64,000 nt of DNA from Candidatus Spongiisociaceae bacterium (GTDB taxonomy: Bacteria > Actinomycetota > Acidimicrobiia > Spongiisociales > Spongiisociaceae). The stretch spans positions 1,120,001 to 1,184,000 of the forward strand of contig OZ253564.1 in the NCBI GenBank assembly GCA_965262915.1, in the 5' to 3' direction. A program made the position numbers and the translations under genes. The notes under the pieces were generated by a model. That model did not search any database. It was not told the origin of the DNA and worked only from the letters and a program-made list of their open reading frames with translations. Shown here one piece after another: positions 8,660-53,168 of the stretch (its first letter is position 1; every line of letters begins with the position of its first letter).

Positions 8660-8970
8660 ATGAACGCCGTAGCAGCCTCCGCCGCCGGTGTAGCAGCGGG
8701 CGGTGTCGCCTTCGCCGGAGGGCGTGCGGTTGGTTTTGAGGCGGCGGGTCTCTGTGGGGTTCCGGGGTTGATGATGACTTCGGGCGGTGCGCCGGCCTGG
8801 CCGCCGAAGAGGTCCCAGGCGGGGTTGCCGGAGCGTTCGAACCAGAGGCTCATCTCGGTGTCGATGCTCATCCGGTAGTTGCGGATGATGTCGTTGCCTC
8901 CACGCCATCGGCCGGGGCCGGCGGAGTCCTGGCGGTAGGTGTCTCAGTGACGCGGACCGGGGAACTTGCG
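8660..8970 (-). pseudogene. Hydantoinase B 3' fragment, copy 3
   Basis: YRQDSAGPGRWRGG...DTEMSLWFERSGNPAWDLFGG...GGGGCYG. Confidence 0.85.
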
Positions 8971-9089
8971 TTGATGATTGTCGAAGTCTTGTCTCGATCG
9001 CTGAAACTCACCCCCTATCGCCTGCAGACGATTCCCGGTTTCACGGGGCCGCTCCGAGATGGTGGATGCGCGATGCGGGCCGAGGCCGG

Positions 9090-42404: not shown

Positions 42405-43202
42405 CTACCAGAAGGCGATCCCGCCGTTGAGATCGAATACCTGCCCGACCGATGAACCGGCGTCCGATGACGCGAGGAAGGCGACCATACCGGCCACCTC
42501 CTCCGGTGTCTGGTAGCGGCCGAGCGGGATGAGGTCACGGAACCGTTCCCGTACCGCTGTGAACGACTCGCCGCTCCGCTCGGAGATGTCGGCCTGAAGG
42601 GAACGGACCATCTCCGTGTCGACGATCCCCGGGAACACCGCGTTCATCAGGACGCCGTGGGGTGCGAGTTCCAGGGCCATCTGCTTGACCAGTCCCATCG
42701 CGGCGTGTTTGCTGGCCACGTAGGCCGCGGCAGGTGTGCTCCCCGACGACGGAAGGCGCCCGGCCGTGGAGACGATGGTGACTATCCGACCGCCCCGGCC
42801 CTGATCGATCATCCGGGATGCGGCGACCTGCGAGCAGAACAGGACCCCCTTGGCGTTGACGGACATGTGCCGGTCCCATTCCTTCTCCGTAACCTCGATC
42901 GCAGACGCCAGCGCCAGGACGCCGGCGTTGTTCACCATGATGTCGAGCCGTCCGAAGGCGCCGGTTGCCTGCTCGACGGCCGCCACGACCTGAGCTCTGT
43001 CCGAGACATCCACAACTGTCGGGATGGACCGTCCGCCCACGGACAGCACCTCTTCGGAAACCGAGCGGGCTGCTTCCCCATCGATGTCGGACGTGACAAC
43101 CGTCGCTCCCTCCCGCGCCAACCGCAGCGCGATCGCGCGGCCGATGCCACGCCCGGCTCCCGTGACGATCGCTACCTGGCCCTCGAGTTCATAGCGGGGC
43201 AC
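42405..43202 (-). CDS. SDR family oxidoreductase
   Basis: [18 protein letters not shown]. Confidence 0.93.
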
Positions 43203-43327
43203 GAGAACTCCTCTCCATCCGGAGTCCTATATGGCACATCGCCGGCGGGAGTAGCGGCGACCGCGGGTCAGGTGATTCGAACGTGGCGGCCTTGGGATAG
43301 GACGGCAGGGCAACCGGGCGGTCTCCT

Positions 43328-43612
43328 CTAGAGGTTCTCCAGGAACTCGACCTCTCGGTTCTCCAGGAGGGGCCGGAGCACTGCGATGGCCACTTCGGCG
43401 AAGTGGTCGGAGGCGATGTGGGCATCGATGGCAGCCCGGTCGTCGTACTGCTCCACGAGGATGAACAGGCGGCGATTGTCGATGCCCCGGTATACGTCGA
43501 AGGCGATGCATCCCGGTTCGGTGAGCACCATGGTTACGTAGCCGCGCAGGGCCTCCGCCAACTTCTCCTCGTTTCCGGGGGCCGCAACGTAGGTGGCCTG
43601 GATGATCATCAT
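43328..43612 (-). CDS. ABM-family putative quinol monooxygenase
   Basis: EPGCIAFDVY, LVEQY, AH..SDHF. Confidence 0.88.
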   Translation of the reverse strand: MMIIQATYVAAPGNEEKLAEALRGYVTMVLTEPGCIAFDVYRGIDNRRLFILVEQYDDRAAIDAHIASDHFAEVAIAVLRPLLENREVEFLENL

Positions 43613-43653
43613 ATCTTGTTCCTTTCGATCGCGTCTCTAGGGGGACCGCAGGG

Positions 43654-43980
43654 TCACATCGATGCAAACCCGATCGAGCGGAGTTGCTGCCGGCCTTCCT
43701 CGGAGACCTGATCGGGTGTCCAAGGTGGATCGAACACCCAACTGACCTCGAAGTCCTCGATCACACCCTGGCCGACCAACTCGTTGCGCATCTGGTCCTC
43801 GATGACCGACGTCAGCGGGCAGAAGGGGTTGGTGAGGGTCACGTCCAACGAAGCCTGCAGGCCGTCCACCTGCACCTCGCGCACGAAACCGAGGTCGACG
43901 ATGTTGACGCCGAGATCCGGATCGATGACCTTGCGGAGCGATTCGATGATCTGGCTCTCGATGCCGGTGGGAGCATCCAT
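43654..43980 (-). CDS. DUF59/SufT-PaaD-like metal-sulfur cluster assembly factor
   Basis: VIDPDLGVNIVDLG, TLTNPFCPL, FDPPWTP. Confidence 0.92.
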   Translation of the reverse strand: MDAPTGIESQIIESLRKVIDPDLGVNIVDLGFVREVQVDGLQASLDVTLTNPFCPLTSVIEDQMRNELVGQGVIEDFEVSWVFDPPWTPDQVSEEGRQQLRSIGFASM

Positions 43981-44429
43981 CAGGTCACCTTCCTTTCGTC
44001 GGTGTTGGGTCTGCTGTCGGAACCGTGGTCTTTCTCGGATCGATCTCCGGCTTCTTCGGTGGTCAGGTTCCGCCAGGTGACCACCCGGAGCCGTATCTCC
44101 ACGCGGGTGGTTCGGGTGGTGATCCAGTCGGCGATGCCATGGGCCATCCGGCGGAGGCGGGTAATCACGTCTCCGTCACCGACGGTCCAGGAGCCGACCA
44201 CCATCTCATCGCTCCGGATGCCGAACCGGGCCGCCTCGGCGACGCCCTGTTCGAGTACACGGGCCAGGGGCGCCGACACGGTTCCGGCTCGGAACTTGAG
44301 AGCCTGGTGAGCCTCGTCGGCGGGCATGCCTTCGAGCCGGGCAAGGATACGCCTGGCCTCGTCCTGTTCGATGCGAGCGTTGGTCTGGCAGGCCGTAACG
44401 CTCGGTTCCGGAAGCCGGGATTCGCTCAT
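43980..44429 (-). CDS. Divergent ribosomal protein uL22 paralogue
   Basis: ARI....ARRI...EG....EA...LKF...; VGDG....RLRRMAHG.A..I..RTTRVEI pattern parallels uL22. Confidence 0.72.
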   Translation of the reverse strand: MSESRLPEPSVTACQTNARIEQDEARRILARLEGMPADEAHQALKFRAGTVSAPLARVLEQGVAEAARFGIRSDEMVVGSWTVGDGDVITRLRRMAHGIADWITTRTTRVEIRLRVVTWRNLTTEEAGDRSEKDHGSDSRPNTDERKVT

Positions 44430-45670
44430 CGCTTTCTCCTGGGCCTGCCGACCCGGCGCAGGTCGGTGGAGAGGTCTTCGATCTGGGCGGCGGTGACCGG
44501 CGTACCCGCTCTCATGAGCTTGCGGGTGGCGAAAATGTCGCGAGGCCTGCCGATGGTCAGCACGGCCTCGATCTTATTCGTATCGTCGTGGTCGCCGGAC
44601 AGTTGGAAGGCGGAGAAGGACCGCTCCCCGATGGACCCGCGGATCACATGCGGAGCGTCGGGATCGAAATGACCGAGAGACTGGATGGTCAGGTCGTACT
44701 GATCCGACCAGAACCAGTGGGGGGCACCGTCCACGGCGTCCTGGCCAACAATGTTGCGGGCCACCACAGCCCCCTGCCTCATGGCGTTGTCATGGTGCTC
44801 GACTCTCAGGTAGCCCCCACCGGACTGCTGCCCGGAGGCCACATCTCCGGCTGCATACACGTCGGGTACCGATGTCCGGCAGTGCCGATCCACCCGGATC
44901 CCCCCGTTCACCTCGATGGCGGTGCCGTGAGCTAGTTCGGTGTTGGGGATCATCCCCGCCGCCACCAGCATCCACTCGCACTCGAGTTCGCCTCGGTCCG
45001 TGGTGACGGCCAACCCGTCGGCGGTCTCCACCACGCTCGTTACCCGCTCTCCCAGGCGTAAGGTGCAGCCCGCGTCACGGTGGATTTCGGTCATGACCCG
45101 GCCGTACCGCTCCCCCAACGGAGCCTGCAGGCATTGCGTCTCCATCTCGATGATGGTGACCTCCGCCCCCAGACCGCGGGCAGTGGCGGCCACCTCGCAT
45201 CCGATGAACCCTCCTCCGAGCACCACCGCCTGGTTGCCGCCACGCAGCCTGCGGGCCAGATCCTCGGAATCGTCCCGGGTACGCAGGTGCAGGATCCGCT
45301 CGCCTTCGAAGCCGGGCAGCCTCCGGGCCCGGCCGCCGGTGGCGATGAGAAGATGGTCATAGTGGATGGTTCCGGCCTTGTCTGTCTCGACTGCCGAGCC
45401 ATCCACATCGATCGAGGTCGCGCGGGTACCGAGAACCAGTTCGACGGCGTTGTCCCGGTACCACTCCTCGGACCGGATGGTGGCGTCGCCTGATGCCATC
45501 GACCCGGCGAGTACCTCCTTCGACAGGGGAGGACGTTCGTAGGGCGGTACGTCTTCCTCGGATACCAGGACGACGCGGCCGTCGAAACCCAGATGTCTCA
45601 GGTTCGACGCGGCCGCGGCCGAGGCTGTACCGCCGCCCAGGAGCATGACGGTCTCGGAGAGACCCGCCAT
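44426..45670 (-). CDS. FAD-dependent ferredoxin reductase
   Basis: PYERPPLSK, IATGG, GGGFIGCE, TSVPDVYAAGD, WFWSDQY. Confidence 0.93.
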   Translation of the reverse strand: MAGLSETVMLLGGGTASAAAASNLRHLGFDGRVVLVSEEDVPPYERPPLSKEVLAGSMASGDATIRSEEWYRDNAVELVLGTRATSIDVDGSAVETDKAGTIHYDHLLIATGGRARRLPGFEGERILHLRTRDDSEDLARRLRGGNQAVVLGGGFIGCEVAATARGLGAEVTIIEMETQCLQAPLGERYGRVMTEIHRDAGCTLRLGERVTSVVETADGLAVTTDRGELECEWMLVAAGMIPNTELAHGTAIEVNGGIRVDRHCRTSVPDVYAAGDVASGQQSGGGYLRVEHHDNAMRQGAVVARNIVGQDAVDGAPHWFWSDQYDLTIQSLGHFDPDAPHVIRGSIGERSFSAFQLSGDHDDTNKIEAVLTIGRPRDIFATRKLMRAGTPVTAAQIEDLSTDLRRVGRPRRKR

Positions 45671-45671
45671 G

Positions 45672-45992
45672 TCAGCCGGGCGGCGCTACACAGATGACGC
45701 CTCCCTCAACCTTGCAGGGAATGGAGAAGAGGGCCGAGTCCGCGGGGTTGATGCCTTTGCCGGTGACGGCGTTGAACTCCCACAGGTGGTTGACGCACGT
45801 CAGTACCTCGCCGTCCAGATCCCCGTCATGGAGAGGCCATGCCTGATGGGGACAGCGGTCCCGGTAGGCGCGTACCTCCCCGTCCACGTTGACGATGACG
45901 ACCTTCGTGCCGCCGGCATCGACCCCTTCGATGTCGCCTTCCCAGAGGTCATCGAGGTCCATTACCTCCAGCCACCGGGCTGCGTCGCTCAT
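45672..45992 (-). CDS. Rieske 2Fe-2S ferredoxin (TmoC-like)
   Basis: CPHQ...CVNHLWEF..TGKGINP. Confidence 0.93.
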   Translation of the reverse strand: MSDAARWLEVMDLDDLWEGDIEGVDAGGTKVVIVNVDGEVRAYRDRCPHQAWPLHDGDLDGEVLTCVNHLWEFNAVTGKGINPADSALFSIPCKVEGGVICVAPPG

Positions 45993-46062
45993 CCGAGTGG
46001 TCTGTCTGTGAAGGGCCGTCGCTGGCAAGCAGGCCGCAGCGAATCACTTTGCGGACAGACCA

Positions 46063-47091
46063 CTAGCCGACGGATTGGAGGGCGCCAAGCCCGGCATCGG
46101 CGAGAAGTTGCTCCCGTGCTGCCTTGGCCTCCCCAGCCACCGCTTCGGCACTGACATCTCCGGCCGGGGCCTGGGCGAGTATCCCACCCAGCGCCAGCGC
46201 AGCGGCGTCTGCGCGCGGTGCCCATTTCGCGATCCATCGCTCGAAGGCCGGGACGTTCTCCGGCCGCCCCTCTACCGCCAGGCTCCCCACGGCCGCCGAC
46301 CACCTGGCCCTCCGAGCCGAGTCCTCGTGCAGGTTCTGGCACAGCAGCCACGTGAGGTCGTCACCGTTGGCGCGGGCTGCCTCTCCCAACGCCCGGTTGA
46401 GGACGTCGTCGAGTGTCGGAGCTATCACCAGGTTGGCGGCGGTTATAGCCTCGCCCCAGTCGTAGGCGATCAGCGCCCGCTCGAGAAGTTCTCGTGTCGG
46501 TTGCCATCCCTCGTGGTTCTCCCAGACATCCCGCTCGCCAGTGGCGAAACCCGCGTCCGGGTAGCCCAACTGCAGCTCCCGCGTACGGATCGATACCACC
46601 GTCACCCGCCGGAGCTGGTCTGCCGCCGCCAAGGCTGCCGCATTGGTGATGTACGCCGTGGGCGACATGTGTGCCACGTAGGCCTGCAACATCTGAATGG
46701 CATGGGCCGGGTATCGGATCGGTGTGTAGAAAGTCCGGAGTATCTCCACCCATTCGGGGGAGAGGGACCGGTCGTGGCCTATGCTCGCATAGCTGTCCAG
46801 CAGACCGGCGACCTTCGTCTCCTGGGCCGCCTGCTTGGCCACATAGGCCCGGTACGTCAGCTGGTCCGGATCCCTGAACACTTCCCAGTCGTCGAGTTGG
46901 ATCGGCGAGTTGTCACGATAGGCCAGGAACCACAGGTTGCCCGGTGAGGAGGGGTTCTGCTCCAACGGCGCCAGCCGGCCCTTTCGCATCGTGTAGTTGG
47001 CGGCGTGGGTGCCGATCTCGTACTCGGTGGGCCTGCGGCGGATATCGCCGAACTCGCTCCAAGTGCGTAGCTTCCGCTTCTTGGCGCTCAT
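46063..47091 (-). CDS. Soluble di-iron monooxygenase beta subunit (TmoE-like)
   Basis: RRRPTEYE, FRDPDQLTYRAYV, YDWGEA. Confidence 0.92.
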   Translation of the reverse strand: MSAKKRKLRTWSEFGDIRRRPTEYEIGTHAANYTMRKGRLAPLEQNPSSPGNLWFLAYRDNSPIQLDDWEVFRDPDQLTYRAYVAKQAAQETKVAGLLDSYASIGHDRSLSPEWVEILRTFYTPIRYPAHAIQMLQAYVAHMSPTAYITNAAALAAADQLRRVTVVSIRTRELQLGYPDAGFATGERDVWENHEGWQPTRELLERALIAYDWGEAITAANLVIAPTLDDVLNRALGEAARANGDDLTWLLCQNLHEDSARRARWSAAVGSLAVEGRPENVPAFERWIAKWAPRADAAALALGGILAQAPAGDVSAEAVAGEAKAAREQLLADAGLGALQSVG

Positions 47092-47393
47092 GATGTCACC
47101 TCCTCCTCGGTCGCACCGCCCAGGGACCAGCTCGTCTGGTCGCTGCGGGAAGTGTTGATACGGCCGGCGTTGGCGGTCAACAGGGTCTCCAGCGACCGCA
47201 GTTGGTAGTCGGGTCCGAGATACCGCTTGAGCGAACTGGCCGTCAGCTTCAGGAACGAGGAGGCCTGGATGCGCACGTAGGCACCCCGATCGATCACCTC
47301 GATCTCGCGGCCCGGATTGTCGTCCTCGATGGCGCTGATGATCTCTTCGATCGTGTCGCTCATCCGCAGGATCGGTCCTACCGGATTCTCCAT
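47088..47393 (-). CDS. Monooxygenase effector protein (MmoB/DmpM, TmoD-like)
   Basis: VGPILR, AIEDDNP, DRGAYVRI, AGRI. Confidence 0.92.
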   Translation of the reverse strand: MENPVGPILRMSDTIEEIISAIEDDNPGREIEVIDRGAYVRIQASSFLKLTASSLKRYLGPDYQLRSLETLLTANAGRINTSRSDQTSWSLGGATEEEVTS

Positions 47394-47403
47394 ACGGACC
47401 CTC

Positions 47404-47679
47404 CTACTCTTCCCAGTCCACACGGATGTGGTCGAGGGGGGCGATCCCCGCCTCGACCACCGTCACGTCGTCGGGCAGTATCCGGTTGTTGTGAATCACC
47501 AGCTTGGGCAAGCCGCGGTCCCGCACCCGGACTCCCACCGTATGGTGGGCGACCGCCTCTGCCACCTCCGCGATGGTGTTGTTGGACATCACCGGGACGA
47601 GAATCTCCACGAAGTCGTCGGCGAAGATGGCGTTCAGCGGGACGAGCTGGGGTTCGGCGGCGCCGCCGTTGTCGCTCAT
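47404..47679 (-). CDS. Monooxygenase gamma subunit (TmoB-like)
   Basis: F.DDFVEILVPV, AHHTVGVRV, TVVEAGIAPLD. Confidence 0.9.
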   Translation of the reverse strand: MSDNGGAAEPQLVPLNAIFADDFVEILVPVMSNNTIAEVAEAVAHHTVGVRVRDRGLPKLVIHNNRILPDDVTVVEAGIAPLDHIRVDWEE

Positions 47680-49184
47680 CCACCCACCCCCGCGCCAACG
47701 GGTTCGGTTCGCGCGTAGGCCTCGGTCCAGTCGTAGCCGCCGGCGTCGTCACCCATCACATCGGGGGTGAGACCCATGTAACCCAGGATGCCGGGGACGT
47801 CCATCGGCTGGATCTGGCCGGCGAGGAAGCGCTCCACCACCGTCTTGTTGTTGAGAGCGTCGCGATCCTCCCACCAGATCTGGCGGCAGGTCCTGGTGCA
47901 GAAGTGGTAGCGCACCCCGTTGTGCTTGAGCGAGTGGTTGCGGACCCGCCACTTGCCGTCCCGTCCGTAGGTGGCGTTACAGGTCGGAAGGTGGCAATAG
48001 TTGCACAGCCAAGGGAGAGTCTCAGGTAGGGCTCGGTGCATATTGCCGGCGTTGATGTTCTCCGCCAACACCTTCCACTTGTCACCGTAGAGGAGATCCC
48101 AGTTGGGGTACTTCTCGATGAGCCACTCGCGGGATTCGGGGCTGACCCCGACCGGCTTCCACCACAGGGTCGGGCGCCAGAACCACTCGCCCATCTGCAG
48201 CGAGTGATGCCATACGTCGAGACCCGCGATGAACTCGTCCCAGTACCAGGGGCGCTTCAGGCCGTAGTCCTGGATGGTGCGGACGAACTGATCGATGATC
48301 CACTCCTCCATGAACTCCCGGTAGCTCTGCTTGCGGTGCTCGACCGGCGTGTTGTAGTCCATCGACGGTCCGGTCAGGGCGGAGAAGGCCCGGGCCGAGA
48401 GCCAGAAGAACTTGTCCACTGTCCACTGGGCTCGTACCGGATCGTGCTCGACCAGGACCTCCAACGTGGGTCCGCCCTGCTGGGAGTGCCGGGCCTCGTC
48501 GGTCTGGATCGAGGAGATCAGGTTGGCGAATGCCACGTCGCCGGCTTCGAGGGCATCGGCGGCCAGGGCCACGAACTGGATGTTGGTGAAGCCCGTCTCG
48601 AACGCGAACGGGAGCTGGATGGCGATATCCACCACGCTGCCGCCGATCATCATGTTGTCGATCAGCGCCCGCAACGCGATGCTCACCCAGTCGTTGGTCA
48701 GCAATGCCCGGTGAGCCCAGTCGAACTGGGGATCGCGTTCCACCAGCTCGTGCGCGAACGTAAGGCTGAGCTGGCCGTGGCGGATCTCGTCGAGGGTGCC
48801 CATGACCGCCATGTTGCGCCAAGCGGGGCTCAGGCCGAAGCGGGCCATTCGGCTCTCCCCGTACACGGCGCCGTACTCGACTAGGGCGATCCCGCCGAGA
48901 TGCATCTTGACCGACGACCTCCACGCCTCGTCCAGCATGTCGTACTGGTTCGACCGGTGCAGGGCGGCCTTCACTGCGTAGGCGGCGGTCTCCTTCTCGT
49001 TCTGGGTGGCTACGTATTCAGGGTAGGCGACCTTGTAGCTCTCCTCCCAGGCCGACCAAGCCTCACGAGGAACCTTGCCCGATCCGCTCAACCAGTCAGG
49101 GAAGACGGCCTCGTCGTCCACGTAGCCCAGCGTCCAGTCGACATCCCGGACGATCCCTTGCCATTCCTCACGTTTGAGAGTCAT
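47676..49184 (-). CDS. Soluble di-iron monooxygenase alpha subunit (TmoA-like, YHS domain)
   Basis: Two di-iron motifs DEIRH and DEARH; FETGFTNIQF; WFWRPTLWW; YHFC..C. Confidence 0.95.
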   Translation of the reverse strand: MTLKREEWQGIVRDVDWTLGYVDDEAVFPDWLSGSGKVPREAWSAWEESYKVAYPEYVATQNEKETAAYAVKAALHRSNQYDMLDEAWRSSVKMHLGGIALVEYGAVYGESRMARFGLSPAWRNMAVMGTLDEIRHGQLSLTFAHELVERDPQFDWAHRALLTNDWVSIALRALIDNMMIGGSVVDIAIQLPFAFETGFTNIQFVALAADALEAGDVAFANLISSIQTDEARHSQQGGPTLEVLVEHDPVRAQWTVDKFFWLSARAFSALTGPSMDYNTPVEHRKQSYREFMEEWIIDQFVRTIQDYGLKRPWYWDEFIAGLDVWHHSLQMGEWFWRPTLWWKPVGVSPESREWLIEKYPNWDLLYGDKWKVLAENINAGNMHRALPETLPWLCNYCHLPTCNATYGRDGKWRVRNHSLKHNGVRYHFCTRTCRQIWWEDRDALNNKTVVERFLAGQIQPMDVPGILGYMGLTPDVMGDDAGGYDWTEAYARTEPVGAGVGG

Positions 49185-49197
49185 GGTTGCTCCTTCC

Positions 49198-49662
49198 TCA
49201 GTCGACTTCCATGTGACCGAGTTGGCGGTAGATCGAGGCACTGTCCCAGTAGGCGGTCAGGCTCTCGATCCGGCCGTCGTCGTTTACATCGAATATGAAG
49301 GCGTGCGGTTCCCAGTACTTCATACCTTTGGGGGCGATCGGTCCCCACGCCTTCTCCTGGTGACCGCCGATGCTCACGACCGCCGCCACCTTTCCGTCCT
49401 CCGAGGCGGTGATCGAGTGGACCTCGTTGGACAGATCCGGGAAGGAGTTGATCAACCCTTCCCATATCGGCCGGGCCAACGTGGCGACCTTGCCGTCACC
49501 TCTGATGACCCGCTGCTTGGTCCAGATCTCGAACGGGACGTACGAGAAGTCGGCATTGTCGGTACAGAGGTCCACCATTGACAATGTGTCGTGCCGGCGG
49601 TAGGCCTCGAAGAAGGCTTCCACCGTTGCAACGGGGTCTGCCCTCGTAGCAGTTGTAGTCAC
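49198..49662 (-). CDS. SnoaL/NTF2-like fold protein
   Basis: VEAFFEAY, SFPDL, GRIESLTAYWD. Confidence 0.82.
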   Translation of the reverse strand: MTTTATRADPVATVEAFFEAYRRHDTLSMVDLCTDNADFSYVPFEIWTKQRVIRGDGKVATLARPIWEGLINSFPDLSNEVHSITASEDGKVAAVVSIGGHQEKAWGPIAPKGMKYWEPHAFIFDVNDDGRIESLTAYWDSASIYRQLGHMEVD

Positions 49663-49674
49663 GGATTCTCCTTC

Positions 49675-50100
49675 CTAGACGATCGACACCGCGTCGAGGC
49701 GTTTGACCGCCAGCCTGCGGTACAGGATGTTCTGATCCCAGAACCCCCGGATGGAAGTTATCCGGCCGTCGGAGACGCCCAGCATCCATACTTGGTCGAG
49801 GTCGATGTGTTTTTCCTGGTTGACGACGCCTAGATAGTCGGCGGCCTGGGTGCCCTCCATCTTCAATTCCGTGACCGCCGTACCGTCGGTTCCCATGAAG
49901 TGGTTCTTGGTGGTGAGAAGAAGATCCGGGAAGGCCGTGACCGTGGCCGCGAAGAAGCCTCTGGCCTCGTCCCTGCCACCCTTGACGTTGGCCGCCAGAA
50001 GATCGACGGTGGCGTCGGCCGAGACCAGATCCATCGCTCCGTCAACATCCCCTGCACTGATCGCGTCCCAGAAGGCGCCGGCTGTGTCGGACATCGGCAT
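49675..50100 (-). CDS. SnoaL-like ester cyclase family protein
   Basis: AFPDL, MEGTQ, GRITSIRGFWD. Confidence 0.82.
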   Translation of the reverse strand: MPMSDTAGAFWDAISAGDVDGAMDLVSADATVDLLAANVKGGRDEARGFFAATVTAFPDLLLTTKNHFMGTDGTAVTELKMEGTQAADYLGVVNQEKHIDLDQVWMLGVSDGRITSIRGFWDQNILYRRLAVKRLDAVSIV

Positions 50101-50110
50101 CACCTCCCTG

Positions 50111-51130
50111 TCAGAGTATTGCGAGGCTCTTGAGCACCGCATCGGCCACCGCGTCGGCGGAGCCCGGGTTCTGGGCGGTGATCAGGTTACGGTCCACCAC
50201 GACATGGGACGACCAGGCGCTGCGCCCGTCGTCGAACACCGCCCCGGCGTTGCGGAGGGTGCTCTCTAGGTACCAGGAGAGACCATGCTGCCCGGGGCGG
50301 GTCTGGTCCTCTTCCTCGTCGGTGAACGACGTGACCCGGTAGCCGTCGAACAGCCACTGGCCGTCCAGGTTGGCGGGAGCCGACAGGAGGAAGGCGGGTC
50401 CGTGGCACACCGATGCGATGGCCGCCTGCTTCTCGTGGAGGATGCCGATCACCCTGGTCACGTCGGGGTTGTCGGACAAGTCCACCATGGGGCCATGGCC
50501 CCCGGGTACGAACACCGCGTCGAACTCCGCGATGTCCTCGTCGCTCAAGGTCGAAAGGTTGGCCGGGGAGACGAAGGCGGGTAGAGAATCGAGAGCGTCC
50601 TTGACCCGCTGCGATTCTGCGTCGCTGTCGGCGATCACCTCGGCGAGGGCGGATTCGAGGTCGGCCCGGGTGACGGACTCGGGTAGGTCCCGGGCTTCGA
50701 GTTCGTCCAGGAACTGGGTGTCGTTCCGCCATGAGGCGAAGGCAGCGCCGGATATGAGCTTGCGAGCCTCGACCGGGTGCATGCCGGTCCCCTTGAGCCG
50801 GTTGAACACCCGCAGCGCGGAGATCATGCCCAGTTCGGTCAGGTGGTGCAGGGTCAGGCGGATGTCGTCAACATCGTGCGCGAACGTCCGGGTGATGCTG
50901 TTGAGGAAGTCCTCGTCGTCATCCGGGTAGTGGAAGATCTCCTCGAGGCCGTAGGGGTCGGCGTAGGGGGAGCGGCCGTCGGGCGTGGTCACCACCACAT
51001 CAACACCCGCCTCGACAAAGCGTTCGTACGGCGTGAGCGCCTCGTCGGCGAAGTAGCCGGTCTCGTGCATGGAACCGTTGGCGAGCTGCATCTCCCGCGC
51101 GCTCGACACCAGGAACAACAATCGTGGCAT
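50111..51130 (-). CDS. DJ-1/PfpI (type 1 GATase-like, Hsp31-like) protein with insertion
   Basis: TGYFADE, PGGHGPMVDL, SVCHGP, ITAQNPGS. Confidence 0.9.
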   Translation of the reverse strand: MPRLLFLVSSAREMQLANGSMHETGYFADEALTPYERFVEAGVDVVVTTPDGRSPYADPYGLEEIFHYPDDDEDFLNSITRTFAHDVDDIRLTLHHLTELGMISALRVFNRLKGTGMHPVEARKLISGAAFASWRNDTQFLDELEARDLPESVTRADLESALAEVIADSDAESQRVKDALDSLPAFVSPANLSTLSDEDIAEFDAVFVPGGHGPMVDLSDNPDVTRVIGILHEKQAAIASVCHGPAFLLSAPANLDGQWLFDGYRVTSFTDEEEDQTRPGQHGLSWYLESTLRNAGAVFDDGRSAWSSHVVVDRNLITAQNPGSADAVADAVLKSLAIL

Positions 51131-51869: not shown

Positions 51870-51911
51870 GCCCGTAGCCGGTCCCCCGTGGTTAGTGGTT
51901 ATTTGTAATAG

Positions 51912-53168
51912 TTGATAGCTACACCCCCGGCGAGCTGGCACCTGGCACCTGGCACCTGGCACCTGGCACCTGGCACCTGGCACCTGGCACCTGGCTACAA
52001 GGTGATCCCCGACCCCGACGCTCCGGGGCGTCACAACTACTTCCCGCATCAGGGGTTGGGCGGTATAAGGATGTTCTCCGCTCTCTGCCGGAAGCTGGAA
52101 GCGGATGGCGGCCGTATCCTCCTCGGAACGGGCTTCTCGCGATTACGGACCGGCGACCGGGGCGAAGTGGTAGGGGCGGTGTGTAACAGCGACCGAGGCG
52201 TCATCGATGTCGACGCCGCGGCGACCGTGCTGGCGACAGGGAGTTTCAGCCGCAACACCGAACTCAAGGTGCGGTACTTCGGAATCAACGGCGACCGCAC
52301 CAGCTATTACGGTTCCCGCCATCACGACGGGGACGGCATCCTGGCGGCGCTGGATGTGGGTGCCTCGGTTAGCAGCGGCATCTCCGTGAGCACCGGCGGA
52401 TGTGTGTTCGCCCCGCCCTTCGAGCCGCCCGACGACCGGCACGTGTTCCTGGGGGGCGGGAGTGGTCTGGCATTGGAGCAACGCCGGATGCCCGAGCCGG
52501 TGCCTTCCGGTGTCCAGCGGCTCAGCCTCCGCCCGCCGATCTGGGGTGACGAGCCGTCGATCCTCGTGAACCTCGACGGCGACCGCTTCGTCGACGAGTC
52601 CTCCCGCTACACGGTGATCGGCTGGGCGACGACCGGCCAGCGCGAGGGGCTGGGCTTCTGCATATTCGACCACCCGGTCTACGTGGAATACGCGGAGACC
52701 ATCGAGGTCGCCCGCGGGATGGGTGCATGGACCTTGCGCGCGAACACGGTCGAAGAACTGGCTCTCGGACTTGCCGGCTGGCGGAGGACTCCCTCATACA
52801 ACGAAGGCGTGAACCCCCGCCGGCTCCTCCGTACGCTGGCCGAATACAACGCGGCCGCCCGGGGCCGCAGGCTGGATGACCTGTGGCCGCCACGCAAGGA
52901 GGGCGGCCGACCCCTCAACCGGCCCCCCTTCTACGCTTCGCCTGTGGTTCAAGGGGTAGTGGACCCGGCGGGTGGATTGCGCATCGACTCGGATGCCCGG
53001 GTTCTCGACCGAGGAGGGCGCCCCATCGCAGGTCTCTTCGCGGCAGGCGCCGACGCCGGCCGCGCCTACACGCGCGAGCACGGGGGCTTCGCCTTCCGTC
53101 TGATCTTCGGCCGCCGCGCGGGAACCAGTGCGGCATGGCTGTCGAGTCAGGTGCCTGACCGCCGCTAG
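51912..53168 (+). pseudogene. FAD_binding_2 flavoprotein (fumarate reductase/KstD-like), N-terminally truncated
   Basis: VLATGSF, GDGI, VNLDGDRFVDE, GGLRID, IAGLFAAG; N-terminal GxGxxG absent. Confidence 0.75.
51935..51995 (+). repeat. Heptamer tandem repeat (CTGGCAC) x8.7
   Basis: Eight perfect units plus CTGGC read directly. Confidence 0.95.

Follow-up and report, generated by a model that had tools for sequence, protein, structure and literature searches.

A 149-residue protein encoded on the minus strand at positions 43980..44429 of the window analysed here (64,000 nucleotides, positions 1,120,001 to 1,184,000 of contig OZ253564.1 from Candidatus Spongiisociaceae bacterium, a member of the Acidimicrobiia) appears, from its sequence and a structural model, to carry the fold of the ribosomal protein uL22, and its gene lies in the operon of a soluble diiron monooxygenase. 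On balance, we favour the reading that this uL22-like protein is a non-ribosomal descendant of uL22 and a dedicated accessory factor of one soluble diiron monooxygenase subtype, where, together with the product of the adjoining DUF59 gene, it would mature the enzyme. This reading draws on its fold, the presence of a separate rplV gene in the genome, purifying selection, strict synteny, fusion to DUF59, co-occurrence with the hydroxylase and the loss of the basic signature of the ribosomal protein.

A uL22 fold in a tightly spaced operon gene

The Pfam family PF00237 (Ribosomal_L22) matches residues 13-114 of the protein over positions 1-103 of the 104 in the profile (E-value 5.3e-16; 59.1 bits against a cut-off of 28) and is the sole Pfam family recovered in a scan at E-values up to 0.1. 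The NCBIfam equivalog TIGR01044 (rplV_bact) reaches 44.5 bits, which lies under its cut-off of 73.65. In a sequence search of the PDB, all matches with E-values below 0.03 are uL22 chains, the best being a modest one to 8crx_r (5.9e-8). An AlphaFold2 model built from 55 family sequences has a mean predicted local distance difference test score (pLDDT) of 86.4 and a predicted template modelling score (pTM) of 0.72, and is confident across residues 10-118. It displays the uL22 layout of three helices and a long hairpin with strands at 76-94 and 100-116; the tail beyond the hairpin is of low confidence. Among the 50 matches listed in a Foldseek search of the PDB there are only uL22/L17e-type chains, with 5v7q_S as the best (E-value 3.1e-10, target template modelling score 0.74). 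The protein can hence be divided into a fold domain at approximately residues 10-118, with the hairpin motif RLRRMAHGIADWITT at residues 91-105, and a disordered acidic tail of 31 residues (119-149). A search of a protein atlas that excluded the PF00237 clusters scored 0.86 at best, with unnamed diatom clusters; these were dropped as falling under the level of 0.9 used for a lead.

The gene overlaps both of its neighbors: its ATG start codon lies over the stop codon of the upstream reductase gene (four bases, ATGA), while its TGA stop lies over the ATG of the downstream DUF59 gene (one base, TGATG). Shine-Dalgarno-like elements are present a few bases upstream of both starts (AGGAGA for the uL22-like gene and AGGAAGG for the DUF59 gene). 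As read from the sequence, the succession of reductase, uL22-like and DUF59 genes has the classic layout of translationally coupled genes. An earlier note on this DNA had described a 149-residue open reading frame of uL22 pattern that overlaps the reductase gene by four bases and the DUF59 gene by one; both overlaps can be read directly in the sequence, and the PF00237 match above its cut-off, along with the uL22-type chains among the Foldseek matches listed, bears out the family assignment. Its coordinates stand as given, while the strand, which it omitted, is the minus strand. The same interval on the plus strand contains a stop-free frame of 150 codons to which no family is assigned; such frames are common in high-GC DNA, and this reading was set aside.

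The ratio of nonsynonymous to synonymous substitution rates (dN/dS), computed by the Nei-Gojobori method against eight orthologous loci, falls between 0.10 and 0.22 for the uL22-like gene in all eight comparisons. In the same comparisons its neighbors show ranges of 0.10-0.32 (reductase), 0.13-0.24 (Rieske ferredoxin) and 0.05-0.22 (DUF59). Some of the dS values lie above 1, close to saturation; the finding of purifying selection is independent of their exact size. The uL22-like gene is therefore a functional gene under purifying selection comparable to that on its neighbors. Contigs from the metatranscriptomic runs X19 and X20, together with those from X17 and X18 (RNA by our guess), lie on parts of the operon. 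One of these (X20, record 22; 153 bases, 3 differences) spans 43845-43997, a stretch that includes the start of the DUF59 gene and the stop of the uL22-like gene. The interval 44104-44505, in the interior of the uL22-like gene, has no contig on it, a gap that is not counted as evidence; DNA may be present in such libraries, and we do not claim transcription of the operon from these contigs.

Divergence from the canonical ribosomal protein

The genome, which is a single contig, encodes a canonical rplV (G000:C1:229342-229671) with a PF00237 match of 110.8 bits, about 0.93 Mb away from the uL22-like gene. The frames around it read by eye, with no family scan, like uL2, uL23, uS3 and uL16, while the uL22-like gene sits in the monooxygenase operon, outside the S10 operon. 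The two proteins also differ strongly in charge, the canonical one having an isoelectric point (pI) of 10.8 and a net charge of +10, as against 6.3 and -1 for the uL22-like protein. Across the 19 full-length family members for which it was computed, the net charge ranges from -7 to +9, with most of the 18 others lying within 3 of zero. A column-by-column comparison of 28 paralogue rows with 38 canonical rows revealed six columns that are at least 60% Lys or Arg in the canonical proteins and less than 25% so in the paralogues, corresponding to T16, E24, E33, T90, W102 and T105 of the window protein. These results uphold what the earlier note had said of a gene placed far from any S10 operon and stripped of basic residues, and they supply the canonical rplV elsewhere in the genome that it had listed as a point to confirm.

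The difference is most apparent in the hairpin. The canonical signature (K/R)RxRPRAxGRAxxIxKRTxH is replaced in the paralogues by a motif of their own, RxRRxAHGxADWITT, and P93, R94, K104 and R105 (in the numbering of the genome's rplV) are gone. The Pro and Arg at P93 and R94 are invariant in all 38 canonical rows; in the paralogues the Pro has given way to an invariant Arg, while the Arg position is variable. Compared to ribosomal uL22, the paralogue hairpin has thus lost the invariant Pro-Arg and gained R94, H97, D101 and W102, the last three (His97, Asp101 and Trp102) being near-invariant, paralogue-specific residues around the hairpin tip. Within a 19-sequence alignment of the family, M1, R19, A25, A40, R57, R91, R93, R94, G98, W102 and T107 are invariant and H97, A100 and I103 are conserved in at least 90% of the sequences. 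A core common to paralogues and canonical proteins is nevertheless retained (R19, G34, A40, L44, F46, G86, R91, R93, A96, G98, A100, I103 and T107). In sum, the uL22-like protein resembles ribosomal uL22 in its predicted fold, its domain length, its three helices, sheet and long hairpin and this shared core, and it passes PF00237; it differs in failing TIGR01044, in its location outside the S10 operon, in its neutral charge and lost basic signature, and in having as extras the disordered acidic tail and, in some lineages, a fusion to DUF59. In a maximum-likelihood tree the 28 paralogue rows are split from the 38 canonical rows on one branch (Shimodaira-Hasegawa-like approximate likelihood ratio support, SH-aLRT, of 99); the groups were picked by the hairpin motif, which is partly circular, and the alignment has 126 columns, such that the tree shows distinctness and not origin.

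Sequence searches delineate a small family. A word-indexed search yielded 45 proteins at E-values of 1e-3 or below among 116 candidates, all with a precomputed PF00237 match, and just two of these bear names, namely 'large ribosomal subunit protein uL22' and 'ribosomal protein L22'. The hairpin pattern R[VLI]RRx[AST][HY]Gx[AS]xW, which in the window protein reads RLRRMAHGIADW, is found in 43 of the 45 close homologues in addition to the window protein itself; the two lacking it are an 87-residue fragment (P0046) and an unrelated plus-strand read-through (P0001). When 1.84 billion cluster representatives were searched exhaustively with HMMER, 93 matched at E-values of 1e-3 or below: 39 have the family hairpin motif in a looser form (RRxx[HY]GxxxW), 37 the canonical uL22 motif and 17 neither. 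The last group comprises degenerate or frame-shifted members (P0077, P0094, P0104 and P0109), unrelated repeat proteins (P0074 and P0078) and, for the rest, canonical-like variants. One of the degenerate forms, P0094 (300 residues), joins a C-terminal segment of the reductase to the uL22-like domain, probably because of read-through, or of a frameshift, where the two genes overlap at ATGA.

A constant DUF59 neighbor, fused in several lineages

The gene directly downstream (43654..43980, minus strand) encodes a PaaD/SufT-like DUF59 (FeS_assembly_P) protein of 108 residues, which matches PF01883 with 63 bits (cut-off 23.5); its matches to the NCBIfam PaaD and SUF-associated families are both sub-threshold. 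Its Cys54 is invariant in all 25 rows of the alignment. The genome has two DUF59 genes, and the one in the operon can therefore be considered a dedicated copy.

The link between the two proteins goes beyond adjacency. Three long proteins, P0050 (251 residues), P0062 (248 residues) and P0070 (258 residues), all show Ribosomal_L22 followed by FeS_assembly_P in the Pfam scan. A DUF59 motif is further present in 13 of the 39 motif-bearing representatives and in P0104 and P0109, in which the hairpin motif is degenerate, giving at least 15 fused forms. Among the loci of the genome scan described below, three of 25 have one open frame running through both domains (L043 from Gordonia hydrophobica, and both L044 and L045 from Trebonia), and on a plasmid of Rhodococcus koreensis a coding sequence of 762 bases, whose sole annotation is 'iron-sulfur cluster assembly protein', spans the two domains. 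Fused forms occur in at least two separate clades of the tree, and fusion or fission has therefore happened more than once. The order of domains in the fusions (uL22-like, linker, DUF59) is that of the genes, and the acidic tail of the window protein occupies the place of the fusion linker. In the AlphaFold2 model of the natural fusion P0050 (pTM 0.56) both domains fold well, while the linker at residues 119-136 is disordered, with pLDDT below 50. A complex prediction for residues 1-120 of the uL22-like protein with DUF59, run without controls, returned scores of 0.06 and 0.19, where the mark stands at 0.32; it is counted neither way.

Synteny and phyletic distribution

The whole cluster, from the DJ-1 gene to the antibiotic biosynthesis monooxygenase-like (ABM) gene, is found in the same order in seven of seven relatives. 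To a broader set of one genome per species (185,579 species) we applied the pattern [AS]HGxA[DYT]WI[TR][TN], which returned 33 stretches, 25 of them confirmed; the pattern is narrow and misses variants such as ADWIHS, ADWISS and ADWIAS, so that the true range is wider. According to the record titles, the carriers are metagenome-assembled genomes (MAGs) of Acidimicrobiia and 'Candidatus Spongiisociaceae', along with Pseudonocardia, Amycolatopsis, Gordonia, Dactylosporangium, Trebonia and a Streptosporangiaceae MAG. Within the Actinomycetota, conservation of the uL22-like gene extends over two classes. A DUF59 match lies directly downstream of it in all 25 loci. The gene for the hydroxylase alpha subunit is upstream in 21 of them; in L033, L034 and L037 the contig ends first, and L046 has no alpha match passing the filter of 50% of the length. 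The reductase gene is placed between those of the Rieske protein and the uL22-like protein in 21 loci, while in L028, L029, L039 and L046 the uL22-like gene comes directly after the Rieske gene. The same cluster is carried by the R. koreensis plasmid (NZ_CP070611.1, 319503-337832; L048).

Some loci show split or degenerate copies. In L046 (10001-10305) the uL22-like gene is split over two frames, with two high-scoring segment pairs and a stop following codon 64; a frameshift or an error of the assembly may account for this. In G014 (L020/L027) it is the beta subunit match that is split, into two overlapping segment pairs of 155 and 144 residues, which suggests a frameshift or sequencing error. 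L023 has at 8748-8990 (G001:C161:2331-2588) a degenerate second uL22-like copy, 44% identical and with one TAG and one TAA, located between the reductase gene and the intact uL22-like gene.

Among the 41 genomes of a sample of relatives, strong uL22-like matches (E-value 5.3e-39 or better) are found in G000-G006, G009 and G014, and alpha subunit orthologues of at least 87% identity in exactly the same nine; the 41 are kin to each other, and the co-occurrence is accordingly to be read as a pattern and not as a statistic. Co-occurrence with this monooxygenase had been among the checks suggested in the earlier note. G007, of the same genus, has neither a strong uL22-like match nor the alpha subunit, its lone match (E-value 7.5e-4) containing an internal stop. 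A useful natural contrast comes from G025 of the same order (L047, G025:C66:86000-105000), which has an alpha subunit of 49% identity and a cluster around it with the gene order alpha, TmoB, Rieske, MmoB, beta; no uL22-like or DUF59 match was obtained in this cluster at E-values of 1e-3 or below. Across 400 other genomes sampled evenly from the phylum, the best match scores 89.6 bits against 174.5 for the window gene. The family is rare, therefore, none of these genomes coming near the score of the window. The profile used in this search also matches canonical uL22 (E-values of 1e-13 to 1e-25), for which reason the E-value cannot separate paralogue from canonical protein. The genome rows that were read each had a single match, save for G000 and G163, and both matches of the latter read as canonical.

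The monooxygenase cluster

The region 42405-51130 of the window holds on the minus strand a 12-gene cluster that is kept from sponge-associated Acidimicrobiia MAGs to the Rhodococcus plasmid. In the direction of transcription it begins with a gene for a 339-residue protein of the DJ-1/PfpI family (50111..51130), followed by two for SnoaL/NTF2-like proteins of 155 (49675..50142) and 154 residues (49198..49662), all three recognized as conserved members by family scan and synteny. These are followed by the genes for a diiron hydroxylase alpha subunit of the toluene/o-xylene monooxygenase kind (47676..49241, 521 residues; PF02332, 235.8 bits), the hydroxylase gamma subunit of the TmoB family (47404..47679, 91 residues; PF06234, 93.2 bits), the effector or coupling protein of the MmoB/DmpM family (47088..47423, 111 residues as listed; PF02406, 75.8 bits), the hydroxylase beta subunit (46063..47091, 342 residues; PF02332, 231.8 bits), a Rieske [2Fe-2S] ferredoxin (45672..46028, 118 residues; PF00355, 66.2 bits) and a ferredoxin-NAD(P) reductase with Pyr_redox_2 and Reductase_C domains (44426..45670, 414 residues). 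The uL22-like and DUF59 genes come next, and the ABM gene (43328..43612, 94 residues; PF03992, 67.4 bits), which follows DUF59 in many loci, comes last.

By its gene content, the cluster encodes a group-2-type, four-component soluble diiron monooxygenase of the toluene-monooxygenase type, with all the expected components present. It is similar to the toluene/o-xylene monooxygenase (ToMO) and toluene 4-monooxygenase (T4MO) systems of the TmoABCDEF type in having an alpha subunit close to that of ToMO (PDB 1t0q_A, E-value 4.2e-165) and in the presence of TmoB, MmoB, beta and Rieske components. It differs from them in the unusual order alpha, gamma, effector, beta, Rieske, reductase, in its Pyr_redox_2/Reductase_C flavoprotein reductase and in the additional DJ-1, two SnoaL, uL22-like, DUF59 and ABM genes. 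As a speculation, the DJ-1 and NTF2-fold genes hint that a reactive product is dealt with further downstream. Genes for an AraC-family regulator and a protein with a type-1 glutamine amidotransferase domain lie ahead of the cluster on the R. koreensis plasmid, and glyA, for serine hydroxymethyltransferase, and a succinate-semialdehyde dehydrogenase gene come after it; these flanking genes are possible clues to the pathway. In the window, the intergenic stretch just beyond the DJ-1 gene (approximately 51900-52050) contains a short tandem repeat, which is read as three copies of APGTWHL at the start of a plus-strand open reading frame and as three of ARCQVPG in a minus-strand one.

A candidate maturation factor and the competing explanations

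Fusion, invariable adjacency, the apparent translational coupling and a common phyletic pattern are standard genomic signs of joint action, and hence we take the uL22-like and DUF59 proteins to act together. For the nature of this action, the DUF59 relatives offer a precedent. For the related diiron oxygenase PaaABCE, PaaD is reported to be essential in vivo yet dispensable in vitro, with a suggested role in loading iron or Fe-S and with PaaE or PaaA as candidate recipients of the iron (PMC4498308); two further studies present SufT, another DUF59 protein, as an auxiliary factor of Fe-S protein maturation (PMC4982691, PMC9045647). The present system is similar to that of PaaD in that the genes of a multicomponent diiron oxygenase share their operon with one for a small DUF59 protein, in which the invariant Cys is kept. 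It departs from both PaaD and SufT in that DUF59 never occurs without a uL22-like gene or domain in the 26 clusters seen. We know of no uL22-like partner of PaaD or SufT, and searches of the open-access literature found none.

Given this precedent and the dedicated DUF59 copy, the uL22-like protein may by analogy be read as a client-specific partner of DUF59 and the pair as a maturation module. The two would act as one translationally coupled unit and help to load iron into the diiron hydroxylase or a [2Fe-2S] cluster into the Rieske ferredoxin. In such a scheme the remodelled hairpin (R91, R93, R94, H97, D101 and W102) would be the element that contacts the client or the metal, with the invariant Cys of DUF59 providing the other half. 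The choice of the hairpin tip as the working surface is itself a prediction, as is the step from acting with DUF59 to loading iron or Fe-S clusters. The assembly or metallation chaperone offered in the earlier note is thus favoured by DUF59 adjacency, the fusions and the co-occurrence, while the chaperone function as such is carried over from DUF59, PaaD and SufT. More tentatively, the exit-tunnel uL22 fold might have been exapted as an adaptor for metalloenzyme maturation, in which the hairpin would recognize the apo-hydroxylase or apo-Rieske protein and position the DUF59 Cys for delivery of iron or a [2Fe-2S] cluster.

Several proteins are known to assist soluble diiron monooxygenases in accessory or assembly roles, namely DmpK/PHK, MmoD and the GroEL-like MimG/PrmG. 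Like these, the uL22-like protein is encoded in such an operon outside the catalytic core, where the known examples affect iron loading, folding or regulation; it has no sequence relation to them, matching PF00237 only, and to our knowledge none of them has a ribosomal-protein fold.

A number of points weigh against this interpretation. Physical binding to DUF59, a maturation activity and the metal centre served are predicted from context. The model of the P0050 fusion supports no fixed interface between the two domains. Some members are still quite basic (P0042 with a net charge of +9 and P0048 with +5), and the invariant hairpin arginines R91, R93 and R94 make binding of nucleic acids or anionic ligands possible. 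Position 52 is a Cys in 71% of the paralogue rows, within a G-T-x-C-x-P motif, and a Ser in the clade of the window protein; the uL22-like side therefore has no simple conserved Cys ligand, and should this Cys serve as a ligand in other members, the Acidimicrobiia forms manage without one. The neighboring genes in the window (a Na/H exchanger, an ABC permease, FAD proteins and an AMP-binding enzyme) give no clear hint of the substrate of the monooxygenase. Finally, no description of the uL22-like family, of the Ribosomal_L22-DUF59 module or of this cluster type was found in the open-access full-text literature; of the papers listed on uL22-type paralogues, nearly all dealt with eukaryotic eL22/RPL22L1 and none with a bacterial uL22 paralogue.

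The synteny, co-occurrence and coupling would fit equally well if the protein were not a transient maturation factor but a stoichiometric component of the monooxygenase complex itself, with a structural or regulatory role, such as an MmoD-type gatekeeper docking its hairpin on the hydroxylase, and the conserved, surface-exposed hairpin motif does suggest a protein-protein contact. We nonetheless regard such a subunit as rather unlikely: as far as we know, the solved ToMO and T4MO hydroxylases are complete without any uL22-like subunit, and the obligate pairing and fusion partner of the family is DUF59 rather than a catalytic subunit. The relatives of DUF59 are, moreover, maturation factors, dispensable in vitro in the case of PaaABCE (PMC4498308).

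A protein that keeps part of an RNA-binding hairpin might instead be a regulator that controls the translation or stability of the operon mRNA, the RNA regulator also offered in the earlier note. Ribosomal proteins are well known as regulators of operons, and R91, R93 and R94, along with R19 and R57, are invariant or nearly so. On the other side stand the near-zero net charge of most members, including the window protein, and the loss of the six conserved basic columns; regulation of this kind also provides no obvious logic for the fusion to DUF59, and no RNA element came to light, no search aimed at one having been made. This explanation accordingly strikes us as improbable.

The replacement of the canonical copy by an alternative ribosomal uL22 under particular conditions, for instance upon induction of the operon, had also been entertained in the earlier note, in the form of an alternative ribosomal subunit. 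The full-length uL22 fold, a hairpin of equal length and the database names of some members speak for it. The canonical hairpin motif is replaced, however, including the Pro and Arg that no canonical row lacks, TIGR01044 stays under its cut-off and the charge is neutral. DUF59 is fused to the domain in several lineages, the phyletic pattern tracks the monooxygenase and not the ribosome, and the 400 genomes sampled across the phylum hold nothing near the score of the window gene. Loss of invariant residues, a neutral charge and fusion to DUF59 all disfavour this idea, and we judge it very improbable. Least credible of all is a decaying duplicate without function: the degenerate copy with stops beside the intact gene in G001 (L023) and the gene split over two frames in L046 would suit it, but the dN/dS values, conservation across two actinobacterial classes with a family-specific invariant motif and the high confidence of the AlphaFold2 model argue against it.

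Implications

Ribosomal proteins with paralogues that act outside the ribosome are known, as are accessory proteins of diiron monooxygenases; what appears to be new is a DUF59 partner with the uL22 fold. If the adaptor interpretation is correct, the uL22-like and DUF59 proteins would together make up an assembly factor of two parts, at times joined in a single chain, that is dedicated to one lineage of these monooxygenases, and the uL22-like protein would represent the first partner with client specificity to be described for any bacterial DUF59 protein. The family also poses a problem for annotation: the split forms are named uL22 or L22, while the fused coding sequence of R. koreensis is named only as an iron-sulfur cluster assembly protein.

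How soluble diiron monooxygenases acquire their metal centres is poorly understood, and actinobacterial members of the class express poorly in heterologous hosts, a practical obstacle in biocatalysis and bioremediation; for co-expression, a maturation module of two dedicated genes would offer a concrete candidate. DUF59 proteins, including SufT, PaaD and the eukaryotic CIA2 family, lack a clear mechanism, and a conserved and sometimes fused partner would give a handle on how they recognize their clients. For the evolution of the ribosome, the family would represent a clean case of the fold of a universal ribosomal protein being recruited to a non-ribosomal job.

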